Shown here piece by piece: positions 27,413 through 50,415 of a DNA stretch of 64,000 bases. Position 1 is the stretch's first letter. Each line of letters begins with the position of its first letter. Where the stretch lies: positions 192,001-256,000 of the forward strand of contig CBDEFO010000004.1 of the NCBI GenBank assembly GCA_965237525.1. The letters are read 5' to 3'. Position numbers and translations under genes: made by a program. The notes beneath the pieces are model-generated. The model saw only the letters and a list, made by a program, of their open reading frames with translations. It was not told the origin of the DNA and did not search any database. Source of the DNA: Candidatus Latescibacterota bacterium (GTDB lineage Bacteria; Latescibacterota; CBDEFO01).

Positions 27413-27428
27413 GAAAATGAGATTCTTC

Positions 27429-29096: not shown

Positions 29097-29136
29097 TGAG
29101 AACCTCCCAGGAGGATGCGGGTTACAAAAGGTAACT

Positions 29137-29460: not shown

Positions 29461-29552
29461 AATCGTAGTAGTATCTCATAATCGTAGTAGTATAATGAGA
29501 ATTATTCCTAATAATAGCATGAAAAAGATAATCAAAAATGGGGCATAAAGCA
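29457..29552 (-). promoter_or_regulatory. Possible internal promoter plus an 18-bp tandem direct repeat
   Basis: TTGCTT-N16-TATCTT on the minus strand (29552-29525). TCATAATCGTAGTAGTAT occurs at 29457 and 29476. Confidence 0.45.
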
Positions 29553-29594
29553 AGACTTTTTTCGAGGCAATGGCGAAAGCTTCACAGCATTTTT

Positions 29595-30713: not shown

Positions 30714-30863
30714 CTGTGCATATCCTCGGCTTACTTTTTGAGTTGACAGGGATACAAATAGTGTGGAGGCTGAAGATGTACGAGCAAAGTTACTTCCCCC
30801 TGAGAAAACTATGAAGCTTGTGCCTTTCAGTGACGGGAATACAAAGTCGCGTTCCTCGTTTTT

Positions 30864-31559
30864 CTACTTCTTCTTGGGAGAAAAGCTGAAGTCCATTTTT
30901 ACCTCGCCCGTCGCAGGGACGGTCGCATCCTTGGATATTGTACGCAGCTCTTCGTGCCAGGCTGTGAGCTTATAGCTCCCTTCTGGAACGTCGGCAATCT
31001 TGAACGCCCCTTTGTCGTTTGATATGGCAAAATAGGGGTTTTCAAGGACTACAATGTAGGCGTTCATCCACTTGTGGATGTCACATGCAAACTTAATCAC
31101 CTCAGGATCGTAAACCTCGTAGGGCAAAGACATGTCCTTTTCGGGCATCGCCCAGTTTATGGCCTCGTTCTCTTCGGCGTTCGCGCGGACATTGTGGTTA
31201 ACAGGGTCACTCGTATGTATATTGACTATCGTCCCTGCCAGTACAGGAAGCACGTGAGGATGATACTGACAGCTTCTCTGATCGAGCGTGGGCCCTTCTT
31301 CGTCCTCGGGCGGCTCGAACTCGCCTTCGACGCCTTCCACGTAGATCACTATGTTCTTTATACCCTTGCACTTCTTGTCTACTACCAGATTCTCCGATGC
31401 CTGCGTGCCGAAATGATCCATGCAGAACTGATCCTTGTCAGCCTTTACCGTCTGGGCTTTCGGAAGGTCGCCGCTGAACGTGACGCTTCCCACAATCGTA
31501 CCAGCCCAGGCAGAGTTGAAAGTCAACAGAACAGAAGCAATGATTATTAATGTTTTCAT
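30864..31559 (-). CDS. Exported cupredoxin-like / carboxypeptidase-regulatory-like domain protein (paralog of 28371..29096)
   Basis: LDQRSCQYHPH, HNVR...CDIHKWM and GSYKLTAWHE motifs. Confidence 0.8.
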   Translation of the reverse strand: MKTLIIIASVLLTFNSAWAGTIVGSVTFSGDLPKAQTVKADKDQFCMDHFGTQASENLVVDKKCKGIKNIVIYVEGVEGEFEPPEDEEGPTLDQRSCQYHPHVLPVLAGTIVNIHTSDPVNHNVRANAEENEAINWAMPEKDMSLPYEVYDPEVIKFACDIHKWMNAYIVVLENPYFAISNDKGAFKIADVPEGSYKLTAWHEELRTISKDATVPATGEVKMDFSFSPKKK

Positions 31560-31705
31560 TTTACATCTCCGTTGATGAATGATTTTTGTGATGTCGTTCA
31601 ATATTTTCCCGCTGCTGGTCGATCTGAGCGACAGAAAGGAGCGACAGCGTAGCGCGGTCGGGTGAGGGACGCTAGCGGAGAAGTCGCCACCACAAAATCT
31701 CTATT

Positions 31706-32386
31706 TTAAAGGGCAGTTTGTAGCTCCTTTGTTATTATTGGATTTTCAAAATCACTGTTCTTAATAACAATGTCAGCCTGTTCTTTTGGATTTGCTTTTT
31801 TAAAGTACAGTTTTTGTCCAGGTATGTAACGTTGGTTATATCTGTCAGTTATTTCCTGCTCGGCTCCGATATATTCTCTCTCGGTACCTCTTCCTATGGC
31901 ACGTTTGACAGCTATTTTGAAATCTACGTCAATGAATATCTTCAAATCCCAGTATTTGACTAGTTCAGGGCGAAATAAAAAGATTCCCTCCGTAATAAGT
32001 ATTGAATCACTTGTCGCTATTTGAACTGGCAAGACGACTTCCGAATCTGTTGCGTAATCGAAGACAGCAGTTTCGTATTGAAAATTGCCAGAGCTCAAAG
32101 GATCCAATAGTACTTCTGCCATTGCTTCATGATTGAACGAATCGAAATAGTACCCCTCTGGTGAATCTTCTCCTTTGCTATAGCGGATGCCTTTAGGATT
32201 ATGAAAACCAACAACAGAAGCCCTTATGATGTTACGGCCTGAACCTTTGAGTTCGTCTGCAAGCTCGTTTGCCAAAGTTGTTTTGCCAGAGGCATCTGCA
32301 CCATCAATTCCTACAAGTATTGGGCGATCTTTTTGTACTGCGGCTACGGTGTCTGCTAGATGTCTTATTAATTCTTTTCGCTTTAT
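31706..32386 (-). CDS. Uridine-kinase-like P-loop protein (gene cassette)
   Basis: The frame extends upstream of 32275 through VGIDGADASGKTT; also TEGIFL and RYIPGQ. Canonical start not seen (ATA at 32386). Low GC. Confidence 0.75.
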   Translation of the reverse strand: MKRKELIRHLADTVAAVQKDRPILVGIDGADASGKTTLANELADELKGSGRNIIRASVVGFHNPKGIRYSKGEDSPEGYYFDSFNHEAMAEVLLDPLSSGNFQYETAVFDYATDSEVVLPVQIATSDSILITEGIFLFRPELVKYWDLKIFIDVDFKIAVKRAIGRGTEREYIGAEQEITDRYNQRYIPGQKLYFKKANPKEQADIVIKNSDFENPIITKELQTAL

Positions 32387-32439
32387 AATGAGAAGCTGTA
32401 AAGTACCCGAATATCGAAACGTTTTGTGGTGGAAATTTC

Positions 32440-32530
32440 GGCTAACGGCTTCTGGTTTGCGAACCGGCGAATGCCGGTTGCCCGAAGGGCCAACGCGCGG
32501 ACGCGCCGTAGCGCTAATCAGGTGTTACAT
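32440..32530 (-). mobile_element. Integron attC site (91 bp)
   Basis: Minus strand: R'' ATGTAAC, arms CTGATTAGCG / CGCAAACCAG, R' GTTAGCC. Confidence 0.72.
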
Positions 32531-32551
32531 GACGTGGCACACGGGTACGGA

Positions 32552-33634
32552 TTACTTGTAACCAAACAAAAACGGTTCGTCAGAGAGGTATTTCTTGCAT
32601 TCCGGAATCAAGCAGTCAGGTAGCTCTCCTCCCCATGCACACCGCTGTGTTCGGGCAGCGATGAGTGCTCCTTCGACAAGTCGAACGAAATCGGGACTGC
32701 TGCGGGGCCACACTAGCGTAGCCATCAAGAAATCCCCGTCGCATCTCAGGAGCTTGTACGTCTACGAGGCACCACCCGATGTCATCGAACTGGTGCGTCA
32801 GTGCGCACAAGTCGAAGTCAATGGGCTTGTAGCGGTCTTCCTCCTCGACGCAATTTAGAACCCTGAAGTCGCCATGGGTCAGGCCCCACGGCTCGCCTCG
32901 TGCTTGACGGTTGCGCGTGACGGCTTCGATCGTGCGCTGAAGGAGCGCCAGCTCATCTCTGCTGAGGTTATTGTCTGTACGAACTTTCCAGTGATCGCGC
33001 TCGACCTCCTCCACATCACCCATCCAGTTTATTCGGATTCGATTGAAGCTGTCCGGGCGGGGCCAGGTCCGCCCATGATTGTGGAGGCGCCCGAGAACAA
33101 ATTCCAAGCTCGTGCATCGTCGCTTTCGGCAGGTTGATGGGCTCATCCTCCTTGGCTATGTCCTTTCCTTTTACCCATCGTTGGACGGTGCACACCGCCG
33201 CTGGTCCGTCGGGTCTATGGTCGAGAAGCTGGCAAATTGCGCCCGCTTCGTCCCGCGACCGGAATCTGAATCTCTAACTCAGTGTCTCGATCAAGCGCGA
33301 GAAGCCACGAACACATGGATGCAACTTGTCGGTGCACTTCGTCCAGGGGGAAGTCGTCATAGGGGAAATGCACAGTCACCAGATGCGACGGTTCCGGACC
33401 CTCCGTGACAACGGCGAGAGCGAAGTCGCTGTACCCGAAGTTTCCCATGTGCCCCGCCAGACGCAGCTGCCTAGGTTCCAAGTGACATCGCGCCAGCGCC
33501 TCATTGGAGAGTTTGCGGAGCCGGGCCTCTTGCTCCTCCCAGGGGCGACCATTGAGGTAACAGTTCGACCCGTCTGTGAGCGGTTCAGACTGATACAAGA
33601 CCTGTGTCATTGGCGAGCACTCCGTTGCGTTCAT
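32552..33634 (-). pseudogene. APH/homoserine-kinase-II-like phosphotransferase cassette, frameshifted
   Basis: LGRLH, HGDFRVLN, IDFD and FLDGY motifs; the gene is spread over at least three frame segments. Confidence 0.7.
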
Positions 33635-33711
33635 CCACAGCCTGATTGAAGTATTGTCACATTAGAAGTCAAAAATGCCAACTGATCAGTTCCACATTTT
33701 CATCCCATGTC

Positions 33712-33788
33712 AGGTAACGTGTTATATCCGATCTATTTCATATATCCTTCCATTTTGGTCTAATATCCGAAGATACATTCCGTTGCGT
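33712..33788 (-). mobile_element. attC/attI-like site heading the second cassette array
   Basis: Core GTTACCTGAC is 9/10 complementary to GTCATGTAAC at the cassette end. GGATAT occurs three times upstream. Confidence 0.5.
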
Positions 33789-33939
33789 GAAACACCAGCA
33801 TTGTGTTGTCTTCCCTCACACTGAACCGATGAATCTTCTTACAGGATTCTTCAGGGCAGACTAGCGAGGAAAACCTCTAACAACAGATGTAAGGGAGGCG
33901 AACGTACGGGTCGTCCTCCAATTTATCCTCTAACCTAAG

Positions 33940-36611
33940 CTACAGAGTCAGCAGATAATCTCTGAGCGCGTCTATCTGCATGTCCACCTGCTCTTTTTTG
34001 TACTCCTTATAGATCTTTCTCATTGAAGGAGCCGCGGGGATATATCTCCTCCTTTCGCCTCTTCCTACACCTATCCAGTTATTGGGCATCTTCGTGCCTT
34101 TTTGGATGCTTTGAGGGTCTTTGAGCCACCTTGCGATCCAGTCGTGCCTGAGCCTGTCTTTTGCCATCGTTAGATCAGGCGCCAGACTACCCACATCTAG
34201 ATCGAGTGTCTGTCCCTTTGTCGGATGGCAGGACTTGCACTGCAACAGTGTAAATATCTCTTTTCCGACTTTGATCTGATCTTTTGAGATCTCGCCTTGG
34301 TCCACAAACTCGAAGGGGAAATCCACATCCGCAAGTGACGCAAAATACCTGGCGATGTCCAGTCGCTTCATCCTTCGAAAGGTTGAACGTGGGCATCTTG
34401 ACGTTCAACCAAGGTCTTATAGGGACCGGATTCTTGAGGAAGTTGAAGAGCCACTCGGCTTGAACCTTGTCACCTTCGCCGTTTAAGTTCGGAGGCACCA
34501 AAGCGACCGCCTCGTCCCTGCTTTTACCTTCGGCGACCATAAAGTCGGAGATAATAGGTGCGATGTCTCCGCCTCTATTCTCAATCTTGTGACACCCCAC
34601 ACAGTTGTACTTCTCGACAAGCCTTCTTCCCTTTTCGATCTCCTGTTCCTTCTTTGTGAGCATCCTGGCGTGATTTGGAGACATGTTGCCTCCTCTGAAG
34701 CTCTTCAGCAGGACAGTTAAGGCCTCTACCTCATCGTCGGTAAGTTCGAAGTCAGGCATCCTGGCTACAATCCTCTCGGTGGGCGAATAGTCCTCGGATT
34801 TTTGAGCTTGTTTTTGGTCCACGCCTCCCACGTGAAGTCTATTTCCGTGACGTCTCCGAAGTCCAACGCCTCCGCTTCCTTGTTGCTAAACTCTGTAAGT
34901 TCCACACCTATTCTAGCGGCGTTTTCAAACCCTTTTATGTTATGACATCCAAAGCAGCCGTAATTCTGTATCAGTATCCTCCCTTTTTCTATCACTTGGG
35001 GATCGTTCAAGTGCAGGATGTGGTCTCCATAATCTTGGCTCTTTGTACTCATAAGATATGCCGTAGTAGCCTTAGCCTCCCCATCCGACAGCCTGAGGTT
35101 CGGCATCTTGGTGCTGGAATTGTAAGAGGATGGGTCCTTGACCCATGCAAAGAGCCAATCGGGATCGACCTTGTCACCCACTCTGCTCAGATCGGGAGCG
35201 TAATCAAAATCTCCGTCTAAGTATGTCCCTTTTAAGATCGGACGGCCTTTCCCCAATAAAATGACACCCGTAACAGCCCACCTGTTCCACAATTTTCTTG
35301 CCGTCATCAATCATTTTCTCTGAGTACTCGACCTTTTCAAGCTCCGCCTCTTCAGATGTATTCAAAAGATACGCCGCTACGGACTCAGCTTCGTCTCTTG
35401 AGAACTTGAAGTTCGGCATCTTTGTATGCGGAAGATAACTTTTAGGATTCTCTATCCATCTTATGAGCCATTCGGGATTTGCAGTCTTCATCTTTAGCTT
35501 TGTCAGATCTGGTCCGACCTTCTCCAGATCCTCGTAGCCCTCGATCTTATGGCATCCGTGACAGCCCAACTCTCTCAACAGTCTGTTTCCCTTGGAAAAG
35601 TGGGGTGCACCCTCAAGGTCCACCACCTGGAAGTGACACTTTTTGCAATTTGACTCTATAAAGAAGCCTTCTGCTACCGGGTCTTTCCAGTACTCGTTAT
35701 CCCTTGACAGGGCGTCCTCGTACGTCATAGCTCTTCCCTGCCCTCCGTGACACAATACGCATCCAAATTTGTCTATTGGATGATTGCCTAAAAGAAATTC
35801 TCTATTGGGATGAGCAGTATGAGGCTGAGGGAACTTCTGGACATCTGCAAACTCCGGTTCGTCTATTCCAAGATGGCAGGAACTGCACCTGTCCACCATA
35901 TCTATGTCCCTCAATCACCAACTGCTCTATCTTGGGGATCTTGCGCGCTACGGCCTCCAATTTGAACTTATATTTATTCGCATCCGCTTTCAGTTCATCT
36001 ATTTTTTTGGTCAGTTCCACAATCTCCTTTTCAACCTCATCCAAGTTAGCCAGTGCTTCATCTCTTTTTTCTTGAGCCTCGTCTATTTTCGGGAGGAACG
36101 AATTGGCAAACTTTTCCAGCTTATCCACTTCCGCCTTCTCCCCGGAAGCATCCGATCCCCGATGCAGAGCGTGTTTATAGAGGTAAAAGGCTGCGTCTAA
36201 TTCGCTCTTTGCGAACTGATACTTCTGGGTTACATCCTCAAGAGCGATCTCTTTATCTCTCAGATCTTGGCTGGCTTTTTTATATTCTTCGTTCTTTTCC
36301 AGATTCTTCTTTGCCTCCTCCAACTTCGCCGTCAGTTCCCTCTCCTCCTCGGGCATAGCCTTCAGTGCCTCTTCATACTCAGCCTTGGTCACTTCGTGCT
36401 CGTATTTGAAGAACTCCTCCTGAACCTTTTTCCAGGGTCGTCTGGTTATCGCCTCGTCGTATATAGTCCAGACCGTCACTAAGAGCATCACCATGATGGT
36501 CACAAGAAAGACGACACTGTAGGACTTGTCCTCCACCTTGAGTGTGTTAGACTCTTCCTCCTGTGTTTCTTCTTCTTTCTTATTTTCCTGGTTTTCTTGA
36601 TCTGACGCCAT
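33940..36611 (-). CDS. Membrane-anchored octaheme cytochrome c with coiled-coil stalk (about 888 aa); split into five ORFs by homopolymer insertions
   Basis: TM helix and coiled coil, then CSSCH, CVLCH, CKKCH, CHGCH, CYGCH, CFGCH, CVGCH and CKSCH. Frames rejoin on removing five duplicated bases. Confidence 0.85.
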
Positions 36612-36836
36612 GCTGTACCTTTCTAAAGAGTGGATAACCCGTTAAAAGGACAGTTGTTACACGCTATGTTTTCCCTGAGACACTCTGGCTTGCATCTTCC
36701 CCGTTATCTTTCCTGAAGTACCCATGTTAGACACCCAGACGTCGAGCCAACAGGCGCCCACCATCGTACCCAAGACCGCTAAAGTGACCGCTGCACTCAG
36801 GCGGCGGACCAAGTTCACGTCTGTCGCAAGATGCCT

Positions 36837-37133
36837 TCACTCTACATTTGCGATCTCAGCCTGTAATCTTAAGGCGTAGGTGGTGGCTGTGGATGGGGCG
36901 ACGTACCACTTGCCTTTGTAGAGCAAATAAGATAACGCAAAACCCACGGCGACGCCCAAGATATTCAATATGACTAACCACTTGAATGCGTAGTCGTAAG
37001 GGGCGGTTCTATATTCTGTGAGGTGACAAGAAGTAAAGACATGAACGGGGAGAATTAAGAAGAGGTATATATATGAGGCGTTTCGGTATTTCCTTATGTG
37101 ATTTGATAAGGGTGCTGTTGTTGATATATCCAC
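36837..37133 (-). CDS. Hypothetical small membrane protein
   Basis: 98-aa ORF with two hydrophobic segments; may be a remnant. Confidence 0.35.
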   Translation of the reverse strand: MDISTTAPLSNHIRKYRNASYIYLFLILPVHVFTSCHLTEYRTAPYDYAFKWLVILNILGVAVGFALSYLLYKGKWYVAPSTATTYALRLQAEIANVE

Positions 37134-37214
37134 GATTTTGCCTTTGGAATCACTGATAGCCCTAAACCCTTCTTCCCCTGATAAGAGGATAAGAGCAGGA
37201 GAGATGACAGGTCG

Positions 37215-38090
37215 CTATATGTTAAACCATGGAGTCACCCATACATATTTTATATTGAAGGCTATTCTCAGGAACATCTTTATAGGCAACGCCATCATAC
37301 TCAGGAACAAAAAGGCGGTCACCGCGTACTTGATCGGATAGTTCTTGAGGTATGCGCTTTTATTTTTTCTGACAAAGTAATAGATGACCCCAAAAAAGTA
37401 ATAACCTCCTACAACTATGGCACCGAAAATAGAGGCCATAAAGTTGTCCCTTATACCCAGGGCATAAGTCAGGTTCACGTTTGTCAGGGCTACCACTTTG
37501 TGGGGGTCCCATCTTTCCCAGGGGAAGAAAAAGTTCCATCCAGGTCCCCTCAGAAACGTCCCCATCATTATGAGGAACACCCATAGGACTATAAAGCCAA
37601 AACAGAACATGGTTATGGCGAACTTTCTCTCTTTGAACGTATAGTATCCCTGTCCCAACTTGTTCGTATCTACATAAGGAATAGCCATCAACCCTATAAC
37701 GATCAGAGTCGGAAGTACGACGCCGGCTATCCATGGATCGAAATAGACGAGCATCTCCTGAAGCCCCAAAAAGTACCAGGGTGCCTTGGAAGGATTGGGT
37801 GTCTTGGAAGAATTAGCTATATCCTCCAAAGGAGCATCTATCCCAATTGACCACACTGTAAGCAGGATCATACCCATCAAAAGACACAGAAACTCCGATC
37901 TCGTCAGATAGGGCCACACCAACACCTTGTCGTTCTCCACCTCCTCGGCGGACTTCTTTCCCTGTGCCTTCCGCCTGTCATTTTTTACCGCCTGCCTCAT
38001 AGCTATATAAAGGCAGAAAAAGACCAATAGTAACATCCCGGCGATGGGTATATTATCCGGTTTGCTCAATATTTTTATGAGGTTTTCCAT
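37215..38090 (-). CDS. Cytochrome b6/bc complex subunit IV-like protein
   Basis: MENLIK start; [26 protein letters not shown] (PEWY-equivalent) and GTFLRGPGW motifs. Confidence 0.85.
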
Positions 38091-38145
38091 ATTATTACTG
38101 CCTGAAAACTCATGCGATGTGGAGTGGTTAGGTACCTTTGCTTTT

Positions 38146-38912
38146 CTAAATTGGACCCGAGATTCCCCGTCCTTCCTTATCCTCCAGAAGTGGACAGCCA
38201 TAAGTATGCTCGCCACAAGGGGGATAAAAATGCAGTGGAGAACATAGAACCTCAAGAGCGTAGGGGGCCCGACCACAGTCCCACCCAGAAGGACGAATCT
38301 CACGTCGTTGTCTGGTTTCATTCCCAGATACTCGGAGAACGGGCCTTCGTGCCCCAGAAGAGGAGTCGCTCGCGCCATGTTCGTCCCGACTGTCACAGCC
38401 CATATTGAAAGCTGATCCCACGGCAGAAGATAACCGGTGAAGCTCAAAAGGAGCGTGAGCACCAGAAGAATGACGCCCACTGCCCAGTTGAACTCCCTTG
38501 GGGGTTTGTACGACCCCGTCAGAAAGACCCTGAACATGTGAAGCCAGACGGCGATCACCATCCCGTGAGCTGCCCAGCGGTGCATATTTCTCAGCATCAT
38601 TCCGAACGGAACGTCGAACTGGAGGTATTTCATGTCGGAGTAGGCGTCAGCGGTCGGCCGGTAGTAGAACATCAAAAAGATACCTGTGACCACGGTCACA
38701 AGGAACATCAAAAACGTTATTCCGCCCATGCACCAGGTGAATCTTATCCTGAGAGCGTGTCTGGGGAGCTTGATGGGATGCAGGTGAAGAAAGACGTTGT
38801 CCAGTATCTGCAGCAACCTGTTGCGAGGTGTATCCTTATAGTCGTGTCTGAACGCTGATGTCCATATCTGCGACTTGGTTATTTTGTCCTTAAGCTGTTT
38901 GACGTTCAACAT
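38146..38912 (-). CDS. qcrB: Cytochrome b6-like subunit (menaquinol:cytochrome c reductase cytochrome b)
   Basis: WCMGG (heme ci Cys), MHRW...[11 protein letters not shown] and YVLH...VHF. Adding one G to the GGGG run near 38165 restores the usual RKDGGISGPI* end. Confidence 0.9.
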
Positions 38913-38975
38913 TTCCTCCTTATGATTGTGCAAAGATACTCAAAGTTCCCTTTAGCGTCTAAATCAGAGCAATAA

Positions 38976-39059: not shown

Positions 39060-40579
39060 AAGCCTTGTGAAAAACCCTTAGATTCAGAAAGTAGTATAGA
39101 ACAAGCATTGATAAAGCAGCTCCGATGTATTATATTATGTTATTGATAATATTATACATGGAGGAAACAATGACCCCACAAAAGCAGGAACAGACAAATC
39201 CGGTGTTTCACTATTTTCAGATGGAGGATTTAGTTCCCGAGGATCATATCCTTCGTCAGATTGATGAGGCAGTTGATTTTTCATTTGTACGAGACGTTGT
39301 ATCAGATTGTTATTGCCCTGACAATGGCAGACCCGGTATTGATCCTGAATTAGTTGTTCGAATGATCCTTATTGGCTATCTGTATAATTTGAGTGAGAAT
39401 CGGCTCTGTCAGGAAGTGGGGATGCATGCGGCATATCGGTTGTTTTGTCATCAGACATTTGATGATGCGGTTCCGGATAGGAGCACGATCAACAAGCTTC
39501 GCAATCACAAGTGGGCATCCAGTGGGTTGTTTGAACGGATAATGCGTCAGGTAGTCCAGTGTTGTATAGATGTCGGTGTTGTGAGCGGTAAACACCTTAG
39601 TGTCGACGGCACTCAGATACAAGCTGATGCTTCAGTGAAAAGTATTGAGCCGATAGAACCCCCTTTTTCTCTTGATGATTATCTCAAGGGAATCGGTTTT
39701 GAAGGTGATAAGACAAAGGGTAGGTCCCGGGCATCCTCAGGATAAAGACTTTCATGGTGAAAAGTGGACGAACCAAACACACCGTTCGACTACAGACCCC
39801 GACGCGCGCTTATACAGCAAATCGAAGGGCAAAGGGGCTTTTCTCTCGTTTATGGGCCATGATCTGATCGACACAAAAAGCAGAGTAATCCTTGAGACTC
39901 AGGGCACGCAGGCGACAGGGACAGCAGAGCCCGAAAGTGCCCTTAAGATGGTAGATGACCTTGAAACATACACCATGCCCAAAGACATTCAGACACTTAG
40001 TGCCGATACCGGTTACGGTTCTGGTAATTTTATCGCTGATGTACTTGACCGGGGAATCATACCCCATATTCCTCTGCGAGCCGATGAGAAGATTGAACCG
40101 ATTCCTACATGGAAAAACAAGACAAATTCAGCACATATTCAGGCCGAACGGGATAGAAAAGTGCGAGAGGCGAAAGCCAGAAATCATGCACGGTCTATCT
40201 CATTAACAGCTGACTACAAACTCTCCCGGAGACTCCGTAAACGCAGTGAACATATCTTTGCTGAAGCCAGGCAACAACACGGTATGGGACGAGCCCGTTA
40301 CAGAGAACTAGCCTCACTGAATGAACAGTTGAATCTTGTTGCAACAGTACAGAATCTCAAGAGGCTTGTATCTTTCATAAGAAGGGGGAAAGCGTCTATG
40401 TGTGCCCTGTCTGTCAAAGACAGTGCATCCTGTTCTTCAAACAGCTCCTATTCCTTGCTGACCAGAACTCTGATAAGACTATTTTGCTTATTCCACAGCA
40501 AAACGATACGATATGCTACTCTTTGACCCATAATCGGCGCTTCAGACGCTGCCTGGGACATAACTATTTCACAAGGCTT
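39060..40579 (+). mobile_element. IS1182-family insertion sequence, copy 1 (transposase +1 frameshift near 39725)
   Basis: 13-bp TIR AAGCCTTGTGAAA / TTTCACAAGGCTT; TSD TTAG; 1520 bp; transposase motifs VPEDHILR, GRPGIDP, VDGT, ADTGY and EHIFAE. Confidence 0.93.
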
Positions 40580-41099
40580 TTAGTGAATAGATCTTCCTTA
40601 GTCTCTATGTCATTTTTCTTTGCAATGAGCAAAGTGGCTGGCAAATCCGTGGTCAGCGTAGTACCTTGCATTTTCAAATAGTTCATCACCTCTCTATACA
40701 AGTTTATGACCTTTAGCTCGGAGTATTGTTCTTCCGCCAGATTTACCATCTTTTCCCTGGCCGACCCTGACAAAACCCAAGCGACCTTCTCTAAACCTAC
40801 GGGAATGTTTCTGTTTTTTTCCAGCTCAAGCCACTTTACCATTTCATCCAAAATAGCCTCATAGTCCTCATGCACTTCAACTTCACCTGAACTGTCAAAG
40901 GAAGTGTTCCATTTGTTAGCCTTAGCGTAGAGTCGAGCTAGAACTGTTCCCATAGAGTCTTCCCCAGCACAGACCAATAACTTAATACTTTTCTCGGGGC
41001 CGGCCGACTTAAAAAAGAGGCCGATTTTCCCCACATCTTGCGAGAGTCTGAATATGGACCCTATGATCTTATACTTTTCCTCTTCCTTCTCCTCTCTAA

Positions 41100-42618
41100 A
41101 AGCCTTGTGAAAAACCCTTAGATTCAGAAAGCAGTATAGAACAAGCATTGATAAAGCAGCTCCGATGTATTATATTATGTTATTGATAATATTATACATG
41201 GAGGAAACAATGACCCCACAAAAGCAGGAACAGACAAATCCGATGTTTCACTATTTTCAGATGGAGGATTTAGTTCCCGAGGATCATATCCTTCGTCAGA
41301 TTGATGAGGCAGTTGATTTTTCATTTGTACGAGACGTTGTATCAGATTGTTATTGCCCTGACAATGGCAGACCCGGTATTGATCCTGAATTAGTTGTTCG
41401 AATGATCCTTATTGGCTATCTGTATAATTTGAGTGAGAATCGGCTCTGTCAGGAAGTGGGGATGCATGCGGCATATCGGTTGTTTTGTCATCAGACATTT
41501 GATGATGCGGTTCCGGATAGGAGCACGATCAACAAGCTTCGCAATCACAAGTGGGCATCCAGTGGGTTGTTTGAACGGATAATGCGTCAGGTAGGCCAGT
41601 GTTGCATAGATGTCGGTCTTGTGAGCGGTAAACACCTTAGTGTCGACGGCACTCAGATACAAGCTGATGCTTCAGTGAAAAGTATTGAGCCGATAGAACC
41701 CCCTGTTTCTCTTGATGATTATCTCAAGGGAATCGGTTTTGAAGGTGATAAGACAAAGGGTAGGTCCGGGCATCCTCAGGATAAAGACTTTCATGGTGAA
41801 AAGTGGACGAACCAAACACACCGTTCGACTACAGACCCCGACGCGCGCTTATACAGCAAATCGAAGGGCAAAGGGGCTTTTCTCTCGTTTATGGGCCATG
41901 ATCTGATCGACACAAAAAGCAGAGTAATCCTTGAGACTCAGGGCACGCAGGCGACAGGGACAGCAGAGCCCGAAAGTGCCCTTAAGATGGTAGATGACCT
42001 TGAAACATAGACCATGCCCAAAGACATTCAGACACTTAGTGCCGATACCGGTTACGGTTCTGGTAATTTTATCGCTGATGTACTTGACCGGGGAATCATA
42101 CCCCATATTCCTCTGCGAGCCGATGAGAAGATTGAACCGATTCCTACATGGAAAAACAAGACAAATTCAGCACATATTCAGGCCGAACGGGATAGAAAAG
42201 TGCGAGAGGCGAAAGCCAGAAATCATGCACGGTCTATCTCATTAACAGCTGACTACAAACTCTCCCGGAGACTCCGTAAACGCAGTGAACATATCTTTGC
42301 TGAAGCCAGGCAACAACACGGTATGGGACGAGCCCGTTATAGAGGACCAGCCTCACTGAATGAACAGTTGAATCTTGTTGCAACAGTACAGAATCTCAAG
42401 AGGCTTGTATCTTTCATAAGAAGGGGGAAAGCGTCTATGTGTGCCCTGTCTGTCAAAGACAGTGCATCCTGTTCTTCAAACAGCTCCTGTTCCTTGCTGA
42501 CCAGAACTCTGATAAGACTATTTTGCTTATTCCACAGCAAAACGATACGATATGCTTCTCTTTGACCCATAATCGGCGCTTCAGACGCTGCCTGGGACAT
42601 AACTATTTCACAAGGCTT
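41100..42618 (+). mobile_element. IS1182-family insertion sequence, copy 2 (TAC>TAG nonsense at 42008-42010)
   Basis: Same TIRs; TSD CTAA; 1519 bp. Confidence 0.93.
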
Positions 42619-43369
42619 CTAAGTATACTTGGAGCCAAGAAGATAGGAAGCTCTGCTATGAGAGGAACATCGTCCTTAGCGAGCTCTTTTTTTATTTGGC
42701 CAAGATCAATGGCTATAGGCTCGGCTGTGAGCCTGATATCTTGTTTAAGAGACACAATTAAGGACTTGTACTCCTCCTTTAAGACCTTCAGATAGAGGAA
42801 TTTTAATTCCTGGTTATTCATCATTATTGCTCCTTTAACCTGTCTTTAACCTGTGGTCCCCTCTATAACTACTTTGGGTGTTACTGCTTCTCTATAATAA
42901 AGTATGACAAGCTTGTCTGCAAGCATTATTTAATGGTTAAAGAAATAGTAAGGTCTGGAAGGTGATTAAGAGATTAGAGCTATCTCAGGCTGTTAATCTT
43001 AATCAGAAAAGTACCCTGAGGAATATTCCTCCTAAGAATAACTAAGCTTCTATTTTTAATGTTCTTGTGCTTATTCATCATTTACAAACCTCTTGCTCTT
43101 AGATATCTTTTAGTTACGTAACTTTTCGTTATCCCATAGCACAACGGTGGTTGGCTGGTGTCTCTGCTGTAAGATCGTTCTGGCAAATGCCGGTCCCGGG
43201 GAACAGCCCGAACTGGATGATGGACTGTGTCGAGAAGATGTGCCGGAGAACTTGGGCGAGGAATAAAGGGGATAAAAAAAGGTCGAAATATAATCCCTAA
43301 TGAATGTGATATGGGGAATGTCGGTTTCTAACTAAAACGGTGAAGTTGAATGAAAGGAGGTTGAAAAAG

Positions 43370-44182
43370 ATGAGTCTGTTCAGGGATGTAATACGAAGCA
43401 TACATGGCTTCCTGTCTGATTCAGAATCAGAAGAGAAGCCAAAAGCCAAACCTCGTATTCAAGAGCTTGCTACCCAGAGGGTTCAAGCCCTGCAAGGGAG
43501 ATGGGAGGTTGTTGAGGCTCAGGTAAAGTTGGCGGCCCAAACACGTCAAGAGCTCAAAAAGCTCGTGGCAGAAGCCAAAGCCGTAGAAACGATTGGCATA
43601 AGAGCAATGGCTGCCAACAACAACAAGAAAGCGGAAGCTGCCCAGGCACGGTATGTAATTTTGCAGGAAACTATCCAGCAGATGACTACTCAAGCTCAGA
43701 CTGCTGATCAAGAAGCCCAAGAGGCGTTGGTAAGCTTTAAGACGGAAGCCAATGCCGCCAGGAGATCAGTCTCAGAAGCCAAAGCCCTGGCTCAACTTGA
43801 GCACGTGCTAGAGCTTCAAAAGAAGCATCGGGCACTCGAAATAACACAGTCAACAGCGGCTGATGAGTTCGAAGAGGCCAAAGACCAGCTTCTTTTGGAG
43901 ACATCAGTTCAGGCTGCTACCCAGAATATTCAGAAAGGAGAAGATGAACTGGCTGGGGAGATAGCGGCCGAATTACAAGATTTCAAGGCTCAACAGATCG
44001 GAGAAGAGTGGAGAAAGAGACTGGCTGAGGCGAATGGTAAAGTCGATGCTGAATTTGAGATTATAAGCAGCGATGCCAGTGAAGAGGCCATCCAATTTCT
44101 GGATCGACCTGTTTTGGGGGGCTTACTTGGTCATCAGGCCACTACTCCTGAAGACGAAGATTCAGAGGGTTCAAATGAGTAG
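43370..44182 (+). CDS. Divergent PspA/IM30-like coiled-coil protein
   Basis: AGGAGG RBS; amphipathic N-terminus MSLFRDVIRSIHGFL; long coiled coils; flotillin operon context. Confidence 0.6.
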   Translation: MSLFRDVIRSIHGFLSDSESEEKPKAKPRIQELATQRVQALQGRWEVVEAQVKLAAQTRQELKKLVAEAKAVETIGIRAMAANNNKKAEAAQARYVILQETIQQMTTQAQTADQEAQEALVSFKTEANAARRSVSEAKALAQLEHVLELQKKHRALEITQSTAADEFEEAKDQLLLETSVQAATQNIQKGEDELAGEIAAELQDFKAQQIGEEWRKRLAEANGKVDAEFEIISSDASEEAIQFLDRPVLGGLLGHQATTPEDEDSEGSNE

Positions 44183-44200
44183 GCAGCAGAAGGAAAGGGG

Positions 44201-44914
44201 GTGAGTATTATGACAGAGCTGCTCTATTGGTGGAACTTGATTTTTGTTCTACCTTTTGTCGCAGCACTGTTCTACATCCTGCTACTGACTACTGGAACAG
44301 GAGCGGCCCACCATGGTCATGGAACAGATGTTGATCATGACGTCGATCATGATGTGGGCATCGAACATGACGTAGCTGACACTGGCCATGATTTTGGACA
44401 TGGTGTTGAGCACGGATGCGAGGCCGGAACCTTTTTAAGAGGCCTAAGCTTCCTGGGAATCGGAAGAGTTCCTGTCTCTATCATTGTGGTCTCTTTCTGT
44501 TTCATCTGGGGATTTAGTGGTTGGGCAAGCAATAGGATGTTAGACGAGATTCTTCCAGCCACGTTGTTTTTCTGGCCATCGTTGGTTATCGCTCTTCTAG
44601 CCTCAGTATTTGTTACTCGCATTTTGGCCACAGGCATTTCAAAAATAATGCCGGCCACCGAGACGTATGCTGTTTCCGAAGGTCAGTTAACTGGCAGGAT
44701 AGCCGAAGCGGTTACCAATATTGATGACAGTTTTGGCCAAGCCCAAGTTCACGATGACTCAGGGTTCCTCCACACTATTTCCTCTCGGGTAAAACCGGGA
44801 GAGAAAAAAATTCCCCGGGGAACCCAGGTGGTACTTATGTATCACAACCAGGAAGAGCGCTTCTTTTTTGTAAACAGCGAGCTTCCGTCAACTGAAGGAC
44901 TGACCGAGGAGTGA
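44201..44914 (+). CDS. YqiJ/NfeD-like membrane protein with His/Asp-rich loop
   Basis: FLGIGRVP, three TMs and a C-terminal OB-fold (LTGRIA...GQAQVHD). Confidence 0.85.
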   Translation: MSIMTELLYWWNLIFVLPFVAALFYILLLTTGTGAAHHGHGTDVDHDVDHDVGIEHDVADTGHDFGHGVEHGCEAGTFLRGLSFLGIGRVPVSIIVVSFCFIWGFSGWASNRMLDEILPATLFFWPSLVIALLASVFVTRILATGISKIMPATETYAVSEGQLTGRIAEAVTNIDDSFGQAQVHDDSGFLHTISSRVKPGEKKIPRGTQVVLMYHNQEERFFFVNSELPSTEGLTEE

Positions 44915-44948
44915 GTCAATTTACTCACCAGAAAAGAAAGGGGGAAAA

Positions 44949-46949
44949 ATGATGGGCGCACTAATAGTAGTTGTTGCCCTGGCCTTTGTCACTCTGCCTC
45001 TGGTTTCCAGCGACTATGTCCAGGGGATCAGCCAGATACTCATTGTTGGTTTTGGAGTTCTGCTGCTGGTGCTGGTATCGGGTATTCGCATTATAACCCG
45101 TCTCTACCGAAGAACAGCCGCAGACGAAGCGTTCGTGAGAACAGGAATGGGCGGGCAAAAAGTTATTATTGATGGCGGTGCTCTTGTTGTTCCTGCTGTA
45201 CACGAATTAATTCCAGTATCCCTCAGCACCATGAGGCTTGATGTTGAAAGGACAGGACCCCATGCTCTTATTACTGGAGATAAACTCCGAGCTGACATCG
45301 AGGCAGAATTCTACATCAAGGTTCAGAAAGAAAGAGATGACGTGGTCAATGCCGCAACCTCTCTTGGCGAGAGGTCGGTTACTCCAGAAAACGTCAAAGA
45401 GCTAGTTTTTGACAAGCTGGTTTCAGCACTCAGAACCGTTGCTGCTACCAAAGATCTTCATGATCTGAACGAGAAGCGGGATGAGTTTGCTCACGCGGTC
45501 CAGAACATAGTGGAAAAAGACCTCAAGCATAATGGTCTGACATTGGAGACGGTCACTGTTTCAATGTTGGATCAGACCCCGCCGGATAAGATGCGGGCGG
45601 ACTCAAACGTTTTTGACGCTGAAGGCACGAGGAAGATCGCTGAGATCACCCAGAAGATGCGGGTGGAAACAAACGCCATCGCGCGTAAGGCGGACAAGGA
45701 AGTCAAACAACAGGACGTTGAGAAGGATAAGTTCGTCTACACGCAAGAACTTGGACGTGCCACTGCCGAGGCTATCCAAGACAGCGATATCCAACAAGCC
45801 CAAGCTGAAGCTGCGCAGAAAGCGGACACTTTCACTGCCGAGCAGGAAGAACAAGCCCGCGTTCGTGAGGTAGAAAGAGACCAGGCCATCCAGGTTTCGG
45901 GAGTCGAAAAGGCAAAACAAATCCAGGTGGCTAATGAGCAGCGCGAGCAGGCCCAGCAAGAAGCTGCGATTAAGAAACAAAAGGCTGTGGCCGATAGAAA
46001 CAAAGAGAAAGCCGAAGCTGAAGCTGCGCAGAAAGCGGCTGAGACTGAACGCGAGAAAGAAGCTCAGAATGTACAGACCGTTGCCATCACTGAAGAGGCA
46101 AAACGGACGGCTGAAAAAGGGTACATTGCAAAAGCCCGAGAGATTGACCAAGATGCGTACGAAAAGGAGCGTCAAGCTGAAGCAGAGCGGGTAGCCGCTG
46201 CAAGAGAAGCCGAGGCTCGTAAGACAAAAGCTGTGGCTGAAAAGGAGGCTCTGACAGACGAGGCTGAAGGTAAGACTGCTAGCGAAATGGTTCCAGTCAA
46301 CGTTGAAAGAAAGAAGGTTGAAGTTGAACAGTCTCGAGTCAACGATGTGACCAAACCACAGTTGGCAGCCAAAGCTGAGTTCCAGGAAATCTCCGTAAAG
46401 CTCGAGCTTGGCCTGAAGAACATCGAGGTCAATGGTGAGGTTCAAAAAGCTTTTGCCGATGCTATGGGGCTATCTCTTAGCGAGGCTGATATGAACATCT
46501 TCGGTGACCCTACCACTCTGGGTAAAATGATGACCATGTTCAGGAACGGTCAAGCTCTTTCAACCGGAATTGATGGTTTCATGAAAAGTGTTGACCCGGA
46601 TGCCCTTGGTCTCATCGGGGATATTGTCTCAGGTGTCAAAGACACTCTCACTGGAATCTTCCAGGGTATCTTTGGTAAAACCCTAGAAGATAGTACTGTT
46701 CAGGCTCTGGCTGCTAAGATTACTGAACAGCCTGAGATTCTCGAGCAGATCCAGGAGAAAGTAGTTTCGGCCCTCAAATCCCCGAGGGATGAAGCTGGGC
46801 TGGCTCAATACTTGGCTGCTACCTTTGGAGATGATTTTGATCTTAAGAGTGTTTCTGCTCTAATCGAAACCATCAAGGAGAAGCCGGCGATTCTTGGTCA
46901 GCTCAATCAAGCTTTTTCTAAACTTCAAGTCGCTGGTGCGACTGAGTAA
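44949..46949 (+). CDS. Flotillin/YqiK-like SPFH protein
   Basis: AFVRTGMGG, ALITGDKLRADI, DLKHNGLTLETV, FDAEG and an EA-rich coiled coil. Confidence 0.93.
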   Translation: MMGALIVVVALAFVTLPLVSSDYVQGISQILIVGFGVLLLVLVSGIRIITRLYRRTAADEAFVRTGMGGQKVIIDGGALVVPAVHELIPVSLSTMRLDVERTGPHALITGDKLRADIEAEFYIKVQKERDDVVNAATSLGERSVTPENVKELVFDKLVSALRTVAATKDLHDLNEKRDEFAHAVQNIVEKDLKHNGLTLETVTVSMLDQTPPDKMRADSNVFDAEGTRKIAEITQKMRVETNAIARKADKEVKQQDVEKDKFVYTQELGRATAEAIQDSDIQQAQAEAAQKADTFTAEQEEQARVREVERDQAIQVSGVEKAKQIQVANEQREQAQQEAAIKKQKAVADRNKEKAEAEAAQKAAETEREKEAQNVQTVAITEEAKRTAEKGYIAKAREIDQDAYEKERQAEAERVAAAREAEARKTKAVAEKEALTDEAEGKTASEMVPVNVERKKVEVEQSRVNDVTKPQLAAKAEFQEISVKLELGLKNIEVNGEVQKAFADAMGLSLSEADMNIFGDPTTLGKMMTMFRNGQALSTGIDGFMKSVDPDALGLIGDIVSGVKDTLTGIFQGIFGKTLEDSTVQALAAKITEQPEILEQIQEKVVSALKSPRDEAGLAQYLAATFGDDFDLKSVSALIETIKEKPAILGQLNQAFSKLQVAGATE

Positions 46950-47015
46950 ACCTAAAAACAGGGAACGCTGGGTCTTTTTAGGAGACCCTGCACTCTCCTC
47001 TTAAGGAGAAGAGCC

Positions 47016-47492
47016 ATGGAAGCAACACCTGGAGATGATATTAAGCCAAAGGTACTGGTGATTTCCTGCTCCGATGGTAGGTTTGCTCAAGCAAAGCAGC
47101 AGTTCCTAACTGAAGATTTAGAGCTTACAGTTTTTGACGAAGTTACTGTACCGGGAGGGCCAGCCAGAGTTCTCATTTCCGGAACTAACTTCTTTGCGGT
47201 CCAGGATGATATAAAGATGCTTGCTAAGGCACACGCAACAGAAAGGGTAATTGCCATTGCACATTTCGATTGTGCCTACTACCACAACAAGCATCCAAGA
47301 TTAGAAGAAGAGGCAGACCTAAGGGAAAAGCAGAAAAATGACCTTCTTGAATTTGCCGAGGAGATCAAGAATCTTGTTCCCAATGTCTTGGTGGAACTCT
47401 ATCGGGAAAATGTTGAAGATGGCCAAGTAGTTTTCCGTGAGATTAAACCAACAACTTTAGGAGGTGATGAAAATGGGCTGGTTGATACATAA
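47016..47492 (+). CDS. Beta-carbonic-anhydrase-like Zn protein
   Basis: CSDGR, VPGG and HFDCAYY (Cys/His/Cys zinc ligands). Confidence 0.75.
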   Translation: MEATPGDDIKPKVLVISCSDGRFAQAKQQFLTEDLELTVFDEVTVPGGPARVLISGTNFFAVQDDIKMLAKAHATERVIAIAHFDCAYYHNKHPRLEEEADLREKQKNDLLEFAEEIKNLVPNVLVELYRENVEDGQVVFREIKPTTLGGDENGLVDT

Positions 47493-48384
47493 CCCCATTG
47501 CCGATATGTATGGCCACGATTTTCTACTCTTTTACGGGGGCATCATTGTGCTGACGCTGGTAGCCTGTTGGCTGAAACTGCGTCAATCTGACCCGACGGC
47601 ATCCATGCCCCTACCACCGGTCCCTTCCGAACCGAATCCCTATGAAACCGCTTACCTGCGCGGCGGGGAGAATGAAGTAACGCGAGTGGTAATCTTCGGC
47701 TTGACCCAGCGAGGATACTTACAGGTGACAGAGGAAGCGGACAAACGGATAGAACAGGCGCCGGACCATCCTGACCCTGCCCACCTGCCCCAACTGGAAC
47801 GCGCCGTGTTTGAAGCGTTACAAATACCCCTGAGCGCCGAGGACATCTTTAAAAGCGTGAGCTTGTCCTCCACGGTTCGGTCATACTGCACTACTTACGA
47901 GCAGACACTTCAGAACGAGCAATTACTCACAGCCGACGAGGTGAAGACGGCCGCCAAGAGAATCGGACTTACAGGGGCTGCGGTTATCTTCGGCTTGGGA
48001 GGTTACAAGCTACTCATCGCTTTAGCGAAGGGTTACTCCAACGTGGGTTTCCTTATTGTTATGGGCATTGTTTCGCTTGTAATTCTCTTCATAATTTGCG
48101 AGTCGGACCGTCTTAGCAGCAGGGGAAAGAAGTATTTGGAGCGTCTCCAGTTAGCATTCGAGCGGCTGAAGGGGTCTGCTGCCAGTGTCCCCTCTGCGGC
48201 GGTGGACTCAACTCTATTGCTGCTCGTGGGAGTCTTCGGCGTCGAACTGCTTGCGGGAACCCCCTACGCCTACTACCAAGAAATGTTCCAGAGGTCTTCG
48301 TCAGGTGGGGGATCTTGTGGCGCTGGCTGTGGCTCAGGTGGAGGAGACGGGTGTGGCGGCGGCTGCGGCGGCTGCGGGGAATAG
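47473..48384 (+). CDS. TIGR04222-domain membrane protein with Gly/Cys-rich C-terminal tail
   Basis: GHDFLLFY, YETAYLRGG and LERAV motifs; tail SSSGGGSCGAGCGSGGGDGCGGGCGGCGE. Confidence 0.88.
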   Translation: MGWLIHNPIADMYGHDFLLFYGGIIVLTLVACWLKLRQSDPTASMPLPPVPSEPNPYETAYLRGGENEVTRVVIFGLTQRGYLQVTEEADKRIEQAPDHPDPAHLPQLERAVFEALQIPLSAEDIFKSVSLSSTVRSYCTTYEQTLQNEQLLTADEVKTAAKRIGLTGAAVIFGLGGYKLLIALAKGYSNVGFLIVMGIVSLVILFIICESDRLSSRGKKYLERLQLAFERLKGSAASVPSAAVDSTLLLLVGVFGVELLAGTPYAYYQEMFQRSSSGGGSCGAGCGSGGGDGCGGGCGGCGE

Positions 48385-48392
48385 TGAGAACT

Positions 48393-49235
48393 ATGGAAGG
48401 TATACTTTCACATCTGCCGGCATTGGGCGTTGGTCTAGGTTTTCGCGAGCCGTTCCGCAGTGACCTCTTTCTGCACCAAAAGAAGGTTGACTTTCTTGAG
48501 ATCACGGCGGATCACTATCTCGATGCGCCGCCAGAGAAGGAGCAAGAGCTGGAATTGCTCTCAGAGCATTTCACGCTCATCCCGCATGGGATCAACCTGT
48601 CCCTGGGAAGCGCTGAGGGAGTAGATGCCGCTTACGTTCGTAAGCTGGCAGCACTCATTCGGCGGCTGAATCCACCGTGGTGGAGTGAACACATCGCCTT
48701 CACGCAAGCGGGCGGTGTGGACATCGGGCATTTGTCACCTTTGCCCTTCACGCGCGAGGCGGTGGAGGTGCTTTCCCACAACATTGAAGCCGTGCGCCGC
48801 CAAATTGACGTGCCACTGATTTTAGAGAACATCACCTACTTGGTGCCCATACCAGGTGCGGAGATGACCGAAGCTGAGTTCCTGAGGGAAGTGCTGGAGC
48901 ATACCGATTGCGGGCTGTTGTTAGATGTCACTAACCTACACATTAATGCTGTCAACTACGCCTATGACGTTCAGGCGTTTTTAGAGCAATTGCCATTGGA
49001 GCGCATAGTGCAGCTTCACTTCGTTGGAGGACATTGGCATAACGGTGTGATCATTGACAGCCACTCGCAACCAACACCGCCTGAGGTGTGGACACTTATG
49101 GAAGCAGTCGTCGCTCATGCGCCGGTGAAAGGGATCATTCTGGAGCGGGATGAGAACATACCTCCGTTTGAAGAACTGCTAGGAGAGATAGAACAGGCAC
49201 GCTCCATTGGAAGACAGCACGAACGATGGGATTAG
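48393..49235 (+). CDS. DUF692 family multinuclear non-heme iron oxidative enzyme (MNIO)
   Basis: GVGLGFR, HGINLSLG, SEHIAF, LENI, LLLDVTNL, QLHFVGG, IDSH and LERD motifs. Confidence 0.95.
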   Translation: MEGILSHLPALGVGLGFREPFRSDLFLHQKKVDFLEITADHYLDAPPEKEQELELLSEHFTLIPHGINLSLGSAEGVDAAYVRKLAALIRRLNPPWWSEHIAFTQAGGVDIGHLSPLPFTREAVEVLSHNIEAVRRQIDVPLILENITYLVPIPGAEMTEAEFLREVLEHTDCGLLLDVTNLHINAVNYAYDVQAFLEQLPLERIVQLHFVGGHWHNGVIIDSHSQPTPPEVWTLMEAVVAHAPVKGIILERDENIPPFEELLGEIEQARSIGRQHERWD

Positions 49236-49927
49236 CGCAGATACAGCGAGTTTTGAGCCAGCTTTACACCGATGATGTCTTGCGGGAACGTTTCTTTGCG
49301 GATCCACAAGCGGTAGGTGAAGTGTTGGGACTTAGTTCTGCTGAGACACATCAGCTTGCTCAACTATCAGCCCAGCATGTCAACTTCTTCGCCAGGTCAC
49401 TGAAGCGCAAACGGCTAAACGTAGTGTGCAAACTGCTGCCGCTCACGCATCGAGTGTTGGGTAAGCGATTTTCCGGGCTTTTCCTTCAATATGCCGATAC
49501 CCATGTGCCGATGGGGACGAAGAAACATCGAGAAGATGCCGGTGCTTTCTCTAAATTTGTCGAACAGGCCGCTCGTGTGGACGGCATTGAACCGCCTTGG
49601 ATCATGGAGCTAGTTCGTTACGAAGCGTCGTGTCTGGAAGCAGCGGACACAACTTGCTGGTGGATAATGCGCTGGTTTCGTTACCCCCCAGTTAAGCTGG
49701 TGCGAAGTTTGATGCAGGGTGATGGAGCCCCATTGCCATTGGCGCAGCCTACTATTGCTCTCTGGTTTCGCTTCTCGCGGCGAAATCGGCTTCGGCATAT
49801 CGCTCTGACGCTGCCGCGTCCATTCATAGGCAAAAGCGAGGCGTACATAGGCCAGCAACTTCGGAGGCATCCCTGGACCGTTAGGATTACTTGCCATAGA
49901 GACATGGAAATCACAGGAATGAAATAG
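49226..49927 (+). CDS. Putative MNIO partner protein
   Basis: Overlaps the DUF692 gene by 10 nt. Pattern LYTDDVLRERF..DP, SLKRKR...LPLT..LG..F..YA and ELVRYE is typical of DUF692 partner proteins. Confidence 0.7.
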   Translation: MGLAQIQRVLSQLYTDDVLRERFFADPQAVGEVLGLSSAETHQLAQLSAQHVNFFARSLKRKRLNVVCKLLPLTHRVLGKRFSGLFLQYADTHVPMGTKKHREDAGAFSKFVEQAARVDGIEPPWIMELVRYEASCLEAADTTCWWIMRWFRYPPVKLVRSLMQGDGAPLPLAQPTIALWFRFSRRNRLRHIALTLPRPFIGKSEAYIGQQLRRHPWTVRITCHRDMEITGMK

Positions 49928-50415
49928 AGTTAAGATCATCTTCTATCTTTCTCTGTGTCTTTGTGGTCAAATGGATTAACCCGACGATTAAGGGTCACTA
50001 CCAAATAATCTAGCTCTTTGTTATAGGGGAAGTCCCAGTGACTTCCCTTTTTTATTACAATATCTGACCTGGGGGTAGCTAGAGGCCCAGTCATCCGACT
50101 GGGCAAGGAATTGCCCGTACAATGTGCAGCCAAAATAGGCAGAGGGCTGTGAACAGTACAATGTTTGGAAGACAGACGAGACAGAACTTACTGGAGAAGA
50201 CAGATGGAAGGGCAAGAACTTAGTGTTCTGGAATAGGCTTACTTGATACTAACAGATAGCTACGCAGGTACCACGGGTACGACCACTACGAGGTCCTCTA
50301 TAGTAACTTTTCAAAAAAACAAAGGGAAATGGAAATAATAAAGTTTGTGTGCGTGCCCTCGTACTGGTCGTACTTGCAAAAAAGAAGGGGCAAGATTAAA
50401 GAGGTTTTTTTGTGA

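Follow-up and report, generated by a model that had tools for sequence, protein, structure and literature searches.

A Three-Gene MNIO Cassette with a Cys/Gly-Tailed TIGR04222 Membrane Protein as Candidate Substrate in a Latescibacterota Genome

Introduction

[quoted passage not shown] (2025, Microb Genom, PMC12452194), and the accessible part of that paper proposes the tail of the TIGR04222 protein as the substrate. According to the same part, the TIGR04222 family accounts for ~40% of the candidate MNIO substrates without a signal peptide, so that one experiment would speak for hundreds of clusters. The enzyme pair FonBC prefers Cys-Gly dyads, needs a small residue after the cysteine, and installs copper-binding 5-thiooxazoles (PMC13097082). 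A cassette of the TIGR04222-MNIO-PME-type 2 class is located in a stretch of 64,000 nucleotides (the window) from a Candidatus Latescibacterota bacterium (assembly GCA_965237525.1, contig CBDEFO010000004.1, positions 192,001 to 256,000 of the forward strand), the host genome being 4.58 Mb in size and 96.6% complete. The gene set and the idea of the tail as substrate are already published, and the locus adds a member to the class, not a concept. New are the argument for a cytoplasmic tail, the portable tail with its natural short substrates, and the replacement of the cassette by an NRAMP-family gene in a related genome. A preliminary description of the window knew of no biochemical characterization of the arrangement, and no later bench test of the published proposal was found among the listed matches of a literature search that covered titles and abstract openings and left most subscription journals outside.

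The explanation preferred here, with modest confidence, is that the MNIO and its predicted helper oxidize the cysteines of the tail, probably to 5-thiooxazole rings. The MNIO-partner dimer would use O2 and a di-iron center and act on the Cys-Gly dyads of an already inserted membrane protein, so that no exporter, leader peptide, or protease would be needed; this would create a patch that is anchored to the membrane, is predicted to face the cytoplasm, and likely binds copper. If the tail is modified, the MNIO matures a full-size integral membrane protein, not a secreted peptide, and would thereby produce a chelator tethered to the membrane. Comparative evidence indicates that the tail is probably the substrate of the MNIO, whereas the further assumption that the modified tail remains on the protein as a cytoplasmic metal ligand is tentative and somewhat doubtful.

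The Cassette and Its Cys/Gly Tail

The cassette contains the following features (ORF, open reading frame; aa, amino acids):

47473..48384, + strand: TIGR04222 membrane protein (ORF1), 303 aa, candidate substrate, from profile search and predicted structure
48295..48381, + strand: Cys/Gly tail of ORF1, residues 275-303, with five cysteines each followed by glycine, from the sequence
48393..49235, + strand: MNIO (ORF2; PF05114, DUF692), 280 aa, from profile search and residue alignment
49226..49927, + strand: partner protein (ORF3), 233 aa, PME-type 2, with a predicted TglI/NGO1945-like fold and without the DUF2063 signature

The coordinates confirm the tight coupling noted in the preliminary description, with an 8-nt gap between ORF1 and ORF2 and a 10-nt overlap between ORF2 and ORF3. 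ORF1 matches TIGR04222 with 114.5 bits (cut-off 43), in agreement with its earlier assignment as a TIGR04222-type membrane protein with a five-cysteine tail, and the cysteines are located at C282, C286, C294, C298, and C301. Its predicted parts are three transmembrane (TM) helices, a GOLPH3/GPP34-like soluble domain, and the tail, which is disordered in the model (pLDDT <50 at residues 280-297). Of the 85,313 open frames that the host genome contains, only 3 have at least three Cys and at least 18 Gly plus Ser within their last 40 residues, ORF1 alone among these three ends in CG..CG, and 117 out of 120 ORF1 homologues share this ending; the tail is therefore not a chance feature. Glycine follows the tail cysteines in 621 of 667 cases among 119 homologues and in all five cases in ORF1. 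[quoted passage not shown] ORF1 does not resemble a short Sec-exported precursor, being a 303-aa polytopic protein without a basic N-region (by inspection). The TIGR04222 gene and the MNIO gene are each present as a single copy in the host genome, where no further tailed substrates were found. As the preliminary description had stated, no small precursor, protease, or exporter was seen among the ORFs neighboring the cassette in the window.

The Enzyme and Its Partner

ORF2 matches PF05114 with 294.4 bits (cut-off 25) and carries counterparts of all nine iron ligands of TglH: H65, H100, E145, D178, N181, H209, D222, H224, and E251 correspond to TglH H71, H107, E151, D184, N187, H216, D229, H231, and E258 (PMC10880893). 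This substantiates the usual His/Glu/Asp motifs of a DUF692 protein that had been noted earlier. The HvfB counterparts of three of these ligands are required for activity (bioRxiv 10.64898/2026.07.17.739211), and the motifs suggest which ORF2 residues correspond to them. Among the NCBIfam models ORF2 scores highest against the bufferin maturase BufB (237 bits) and HvfB (223 bits), followed by ApyH (121), ChrH (74), and MbnB (49), all below their cut-offs (310 bits for the BufB equivalog, 360 bits for HvfB). TglH is the second PDB sequence match (E 1e-32). The ERD motif of 3BWW is kept in ORF2, whereas TglH has EY at this position, and D253 within the motif, which likely corresponds to the catalytic base of FonB, is the likely catalytic base. 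Because the BufB and HvfB models score best and the tail cysteines precede glycine as FonBC prefers, a 5-thiooxazole is the best guess for the product, with a probability that we place a little short of even.

The partner has no Pfam match, including PF09836 (DUF2063) at E 0.001. Its predicted structure (pLDDT 89) resembles TglI (Foldseek E 2.9e-5; VIA Z 11.5, root-mean-square deviation (rmsd) 5.7, 196 aligned residues) and, with lower scores, NGO1945 (3dee; VIA Z 8.9, rmsd 3.5, 128 aligned) and MbnC (VIA Z 6.4). A PDB sequence search with the partner profile returned weak nitrile-hydratase rows only (E >=0.035). The earlier label of a helical partner holds for residues 1-140, but three strands follow and the protein is not purely helical. 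The last ~35 residues are poorly modeled and absent from most homologues; the 3' end of the gene (window 49856-49939) recurs with 86% identity on a second host contig and in the same-genus genome G009, and these residues may represent read-through into a repeat.

Co-occurrence of the Enzyme with Tailed Proteins

Relatives of the MNIO were collected from GTDB genomes and the best 80 of 139 loci, which are cyanobacterial, acidobacterial, verrucomicrobial, and planctomycete, were kept for neighborhood counts. The partner is present in all 80 loci and a tailed TIGR04222 gene in 71 (58 directly upstream of the MNIO and 13 elsewhere within 5 kb), with two to three tailed copies in 12 loci. The preliminary description had proposed both this analysis and hidden Markov model searches with PF05114 and TIGR04222, and had considered that related MNIO pairs might usually lack the TIGR04222 gene; the reverse was found, and the counts support, on comparative grounds, its proposal of the tail as substrate. 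One of the remaining nine loci contains a broken tailed copy and eight have none. Two of these eight lie at a contig edge (one of them shows the tail), three have a TIGR04222 gene elsewhere in the genome (three of five genomes searched), and three verrucomicrobial genomes contain 65-91-aa hydrophobic peptides with the same tail, so that a tail at the contig edge, a TIGR04222 gene elsewhere, or a short membrane peptide accounts for seven of the eight.

The same tail is found on other scaffolds. In loci L071 and L078, membrane peptides of 65-87 aa carry it just downstream of the partner gene. A three-helix mini scaffold of ~120-150 aa without the soluble domain (P0121-P0163) has the tail in 94 out of 95 homologues, and tailed three-helix proteins (~140 aa) lie directly upstream of more distant MNIOs (L239:2280-2717 and L253:1501-1965). 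The mini family may be the adjamnio-I family (122-293 aa, 8-21 Cys) of PMC12452194. The retention of the tail on short peptides and on the mini scaffold argues that the tail, and not the scaffold, travels with the enzyme. In locus L171 (2441-4445) a radical SAM/SPASM gene lies directly behind a tailed TIGR04222 gene without an MNIO, an arrangement seen in 1 out of 50 loci of at least 3 kb. A broader reading, which we regard as speculative and rather unlikely, is that the Cys-Gly tail serves many unrelated membrane and soluble proteins as a transferable tag for modification at the C-terminus, displayed at the cytoplasmic membrane face. Oxygen users would mature it with an MNIO, and other hosts with a radical SAM/SPASM enzyme, into a patch that binds metal, also in trans. 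If true, RiPP chemistry would be used to mature ordinary proteins. With lengths of 65-150 aa, the natural short substrates lend themselves to testing much more readily than the full-length protein does.

Further observations concern the tailed genes and their surroundings. Short tailed membrane peptides in genomes with this MNIO are located at L071:6517-7096 and L078:7260-7457 and in L099, L102, and L108; a DUF350 gene follows the peptide in L078, and genome G173 contains at least four such ORFs. Two Nostoc loci carry internally deleted TIGR04222 copies directly before the MNIO (L042:4826-4997, L047:4826-4993) that join the start of the gene to the end of the tail. In 10 of the 80 loci (L046, L049, L050, L052, L061, L071, L073, L074, L077, and L078) the surroundings of the MNIO include a nucleotidyltransferase-like gene, and the window cassette has none beside it. 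A tail-derived DNA pattern was applied to 151 genomes of one order: the strict form matched none, missing genomes known to carry tails, and the loose form matched 86, about as frequently as a reversed control.

Orientation of the Tail

Charge bias, the structure model, a weak GOLPH3-like match, and the three-helix mini proteins together make it quite likely that the tail is on the cytoplasmic side, where it is predicted to be reachable by a cytoplasmic enzyme; accessibility had been a point on which the preliminary description depended. With a cytoplasmic tail, modification after membrane insertion becomes possible. Across the family the mean number of Lys plus Arg residues (K+R) is 2.1 after TM1, 2.1 before TM2, and 4.7 after TM3, but the N-terminus averages 0.2 and the TM2-3 loop 1.2. 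This bias places the N-terminus outside and the large domain and the post-TM3 segment inside. The ORF1 model (pLDDT 91, from 119 sequences) contains long helices at residues 14-39, 155-186, and 192-209 that align as a bundle, and a fourth hydrophobic stretch that forms helices 246-255 and 257-260 around an invariant G256. GOLPH3/Vps74 entries are the top Foldseek rows (E 0.25-1.2, weak) and their VIA alignments, which comprise 152-165 residues within the model range 52-280, are likewise weak (Z 6.6-8.0, rmsd 5.7-7.0); on this match the fourth stretch would sit inside the soluble domain. One long homologue has a PF05719 match below the cut-off (E 0.009). Once its tails are trimmed off, the mini family gives gapless alignments with TM1 (E 6e-6) and with TM2-3 (E 3e-4), and its tail comes straight after TM3 (42 proteins).

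Tailed proteins outside the TIGR04222 family were also compared. Of 58 distinct frames, perhaps including some that are not genes, 33 have a helix near their end; counted in crude windows, 22 of these have more K+R behind their last helix than ahead of it, 4 have equal numbers, and 7 have fewer. All 32 complete tailed proteins that begin with a soluble domain lack a hydrophobic segment at the N-terminus, which fits the cytoplasmic orientation, and three apparently complete tailed proteins (L134, L169, and L185) have no predicted TM helix. Many tailed proteins, in L110, L113, L123, L137, L152, and other loci, start with a soluble domain of ~150 aa that carries a W[HQ]xH motif; one of these domains has a weak GRDP-like Pfam match, and no member of the long class was near an MNIO. 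A wide VIA search with the membrane protein, which yielded nothing but generic three-helix bundles, was set aside, and profile comparisons with the soluble tailed L134 protein and an untrimmed mini protein were left unused because the low-complexity tail drove them.

Genomic Neighborhood and Distribution

The cassette has a patchy distribution: TIGR04222 is above its cut-off in 3 out of 168 genomes of the phylum and PF05114 is present in 7 out of 168. The only other copy of the cassette found in the phylum is in genome G040 (72% DNA identity), where the MNIO is split into two frames (L057:4896-5842). In G009 the flanks are 98% identical up to window position 47457 and 93% identical from position 50311, and window 47458-50310 is replaced by an NRAMP-family gene (PF01566, 102 bits; G009:C1:3951457-3952769, L274:3590-4888). 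Identity thus stops just ahead of the Shine-Dalgarno-like GGAGG (47460..47464) at the left edge of the cassette, and the occupation of the slot by this gene identifies the cassette as a replaceable unit behind the flotillin operon. The alternative occupant is, by its family match, likely a divalent-metal transporter, and the exchange in this single genome hints at metal handling. The short tailed peptides resemble Pfam YxzE below the cut-off (24-34 bits of 40). In B. subtilis, yxzE is assigned to the sigma-W envelope-stress regulon together with pspA and floT (PMC3498285) and is likewise listed as a sigma-W gene in PMC12563154; the profile resemblance may hint at envelope stress.

The remaining features of the cassette are:

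47460..47464, + strand: Shine-Dalgarno-like GGAGG, 8 nt ahead of the ATG at 47473
50025..50059, + strand: terminator-like hairpin and T run 3' of the partner gene, from a sequence scan

The ATG at 47473 coincides with the start of 92% of the homologues. Terminator-like sites occur at chance level in the region (9 found vs. 7.4 expected), and a promoter scan of the region gave candidates at chance level. The three cassette genes form the end of a longer run on the same strand, in which positions 43340-47492 encode a coiled-coil ORF (PspA-like by appearance only, with no Pfam match), a YqiJ-like protein, a flotillin (Band 7), and a putative carbonic anhydrase (PF20393; 47016-47492). The last of these overlaps the start of ORF1 by 20 nt, which makes co-transcription of the cassette with the upstream run possible. 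The upstream genes were examined as possible components of this system and rejected, as they are present in none of the 80 loci and occur in G009 without the cassette. Further upstream, a 194-aa ORF without a known family (40564-41148) lies between a pair of nearly identical transposase genes that combine DUF772 with a DDE domain (39125-40526 and 41165-42565); both members of the pair are split in two frames. Window 22898-38933 (- strand) contains a single run of cytochrome c oxidase, heme biosynthesis, multiple cytochrome c, and cytochrome b genes, of which the Pfam check covered subunit I. The heme-copper oxidase is encoded ~20 kb upstream of the cassette, and the host therefore likely meets O2.

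Alternative Explanations

Several observations weigh against the preferred explanation. The 80 loci belong mostly to related cyanobacteria and are not independent. A tail-first metagenome scan with one ending (GCGGCGGGD-stop) gave 121 tails in 120 of about 190 loci, and among these listed loci an MNIO is present in the locus for only 12 of the 121 tails and near 7 of the 56 tails whose locus extends 1 kb or more further downstream; for tails on long scaffolds the count is 0 out of 26. In PMC12452194, 490 of 1372 genomes with TIGR04222 have no MNIO at all, and the tail is predicted to be periplasmic. The partner is closer to TglI than to the DUF2063 type and TglHI catalyzes beta-carbon excision instead, so that the thiooxazole is only a best guess. 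The GOLPH3 match is weak, with a VIA Z at a level that the tool calls common, the charge bias of the mini family alone is not decisive, and the NRAMP exchange is seen in one genome and may reflect an insertion hotspot.

Since most tails have no nearby MNIO, the tail has a use without this enzyme. Without being modified, it might provide a membrane protein of the envelope-stress response with a redox, Fe-S, or free-thiol metal site, with the MNIO pair acting elsewhere or only occasionally. The 109 out of 121 tails without a nearby MNIO speak for this, as do the YxzE-like short peptides, the place of yxzE in the sigma-W regulon, and the finding that PF05114 was not detected in a B. subtilis control genome. 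The explanation nevertheless appears quite improbable, as 10 out of 14 tails of the ~300-aa size class (complete short frames) adjoin an MNIO, with two of the four misses measuring at most 65 aa and L171 being another miss, and as the cassette moves as three genes and no other candidate substrate was found in it. Even with the tail as substrate, another chemistry could apply (carbon excision in the manner of TglH, cross-linking, or alteration of the C-terminus), or a housekeeping protease could release the modified tail to act as a free peptide. The similarity of the partner to TglI and of the enzyme to TglH, the scores below every equivalog cut-off, and the radical SAM/SPASM gene in the place of the MNIO in L171, which makes other chemistry on the tail plausible, point in this direction. 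The tail cysteines, however, are internal, repeated, and flanked by glycine, unlike the C-terminal Cys of TglA-Cys, the ERD motif is that of 3BWW and not the EY of TglH, and no protease gene lies beside the window cassette, which leaves this possibility improbable.

In the published variant (PMC12452194), the tail would acquire its modification in the cytoplasm while the protein is being made and would then cross the membrane via a fourth TM helix, to serve as a periplasmic copper sponge like the bufferins. Residues 247-262 are indeed hydrophobic (the median best 19-residue hydropathy in the family is 1.75, and 83 of 119 homologues exceed the simple TM threshold of 1.6), and bufferins act in the periplasm. 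In the model, however, the stretch is a 10-residue helix broken at the invariant G256 and falls within the GOLPH3-aligned range, the mini proteins keep the tail without it, the charge bias after the last helix extends to 22 of 33 tailed proteins of other families, and tails exist on proteins without a TM helix. This variant is judged improbable, and the membrane-tethered cytoplasmic patch is retained as the preferred explanation.

Comparison with Known Systems

The weak match to GOLPH3/Vps74 (GPP34) covers nearly the whole GOLPH3 chain, and no function follows from it; unlike GOLPH3, the ORF1 domain appears to contain an inserted TM hairpin. Among the 119 homologues of ORF1, 118 also match the C-terminal domain of DUF2207 (DUF2207_C) at E up to 1. 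The cassette shares its nine iron ligands and the best structural match of its partner with TglHI of the 3-thiaglutamate pathway. TglHI takes the beta-carbon out of a tRNA-appended Cys at the C-terminus and depends on a PEARL enzyme, for which no gene lies beside the window cassette.

The closest characterized enzymes by profile score are those of the captophorins (bufferins, oxazolin, and fontiphorin; BufABC, HvfABC, and FonABC), with which the cassette shares the precursor-enzyme-partner order, the repeated Cys-Gly dyads, and likely the chemistry. Captophorin precursors are short and Sec-exported (DUF2282, EGKCG, or 6/12-Cys type) and their partners are of the DUF2063-RRE type (PME-type 1), whereas the window cassette has a polytopic membrane protein, a type 2 partner, and an enzyme below the BufB and HvfB cut-offs. 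The cassette works most like the bufferin/captophorin systems yet lies outside them by their membership tests. By its TIGR04222 signature, its Ser/Gly-rich Cys tail, and its TglI/3dee-like partner it belongs to the TIGR04222-MNIO-PME-type 2 class. As described in the accessible text of PMC12452194, these clusters have the same three components in the same order, a precursor without a signal peptide and with a Ser/Gly/Cys tail, and a partner that lacks the DUF2063 signature but has a TglI/NGO1945-like fold. That text makes no mention of a GOLPH3-like fold, short tailed peptides, or an NRAMP exchange. Its members are mostly actinobacterial, with tail and large domain placed in the periplasm, whereas the relatives of the window cassette come from the four other groups named above and a cytoplasmic location is favored here.

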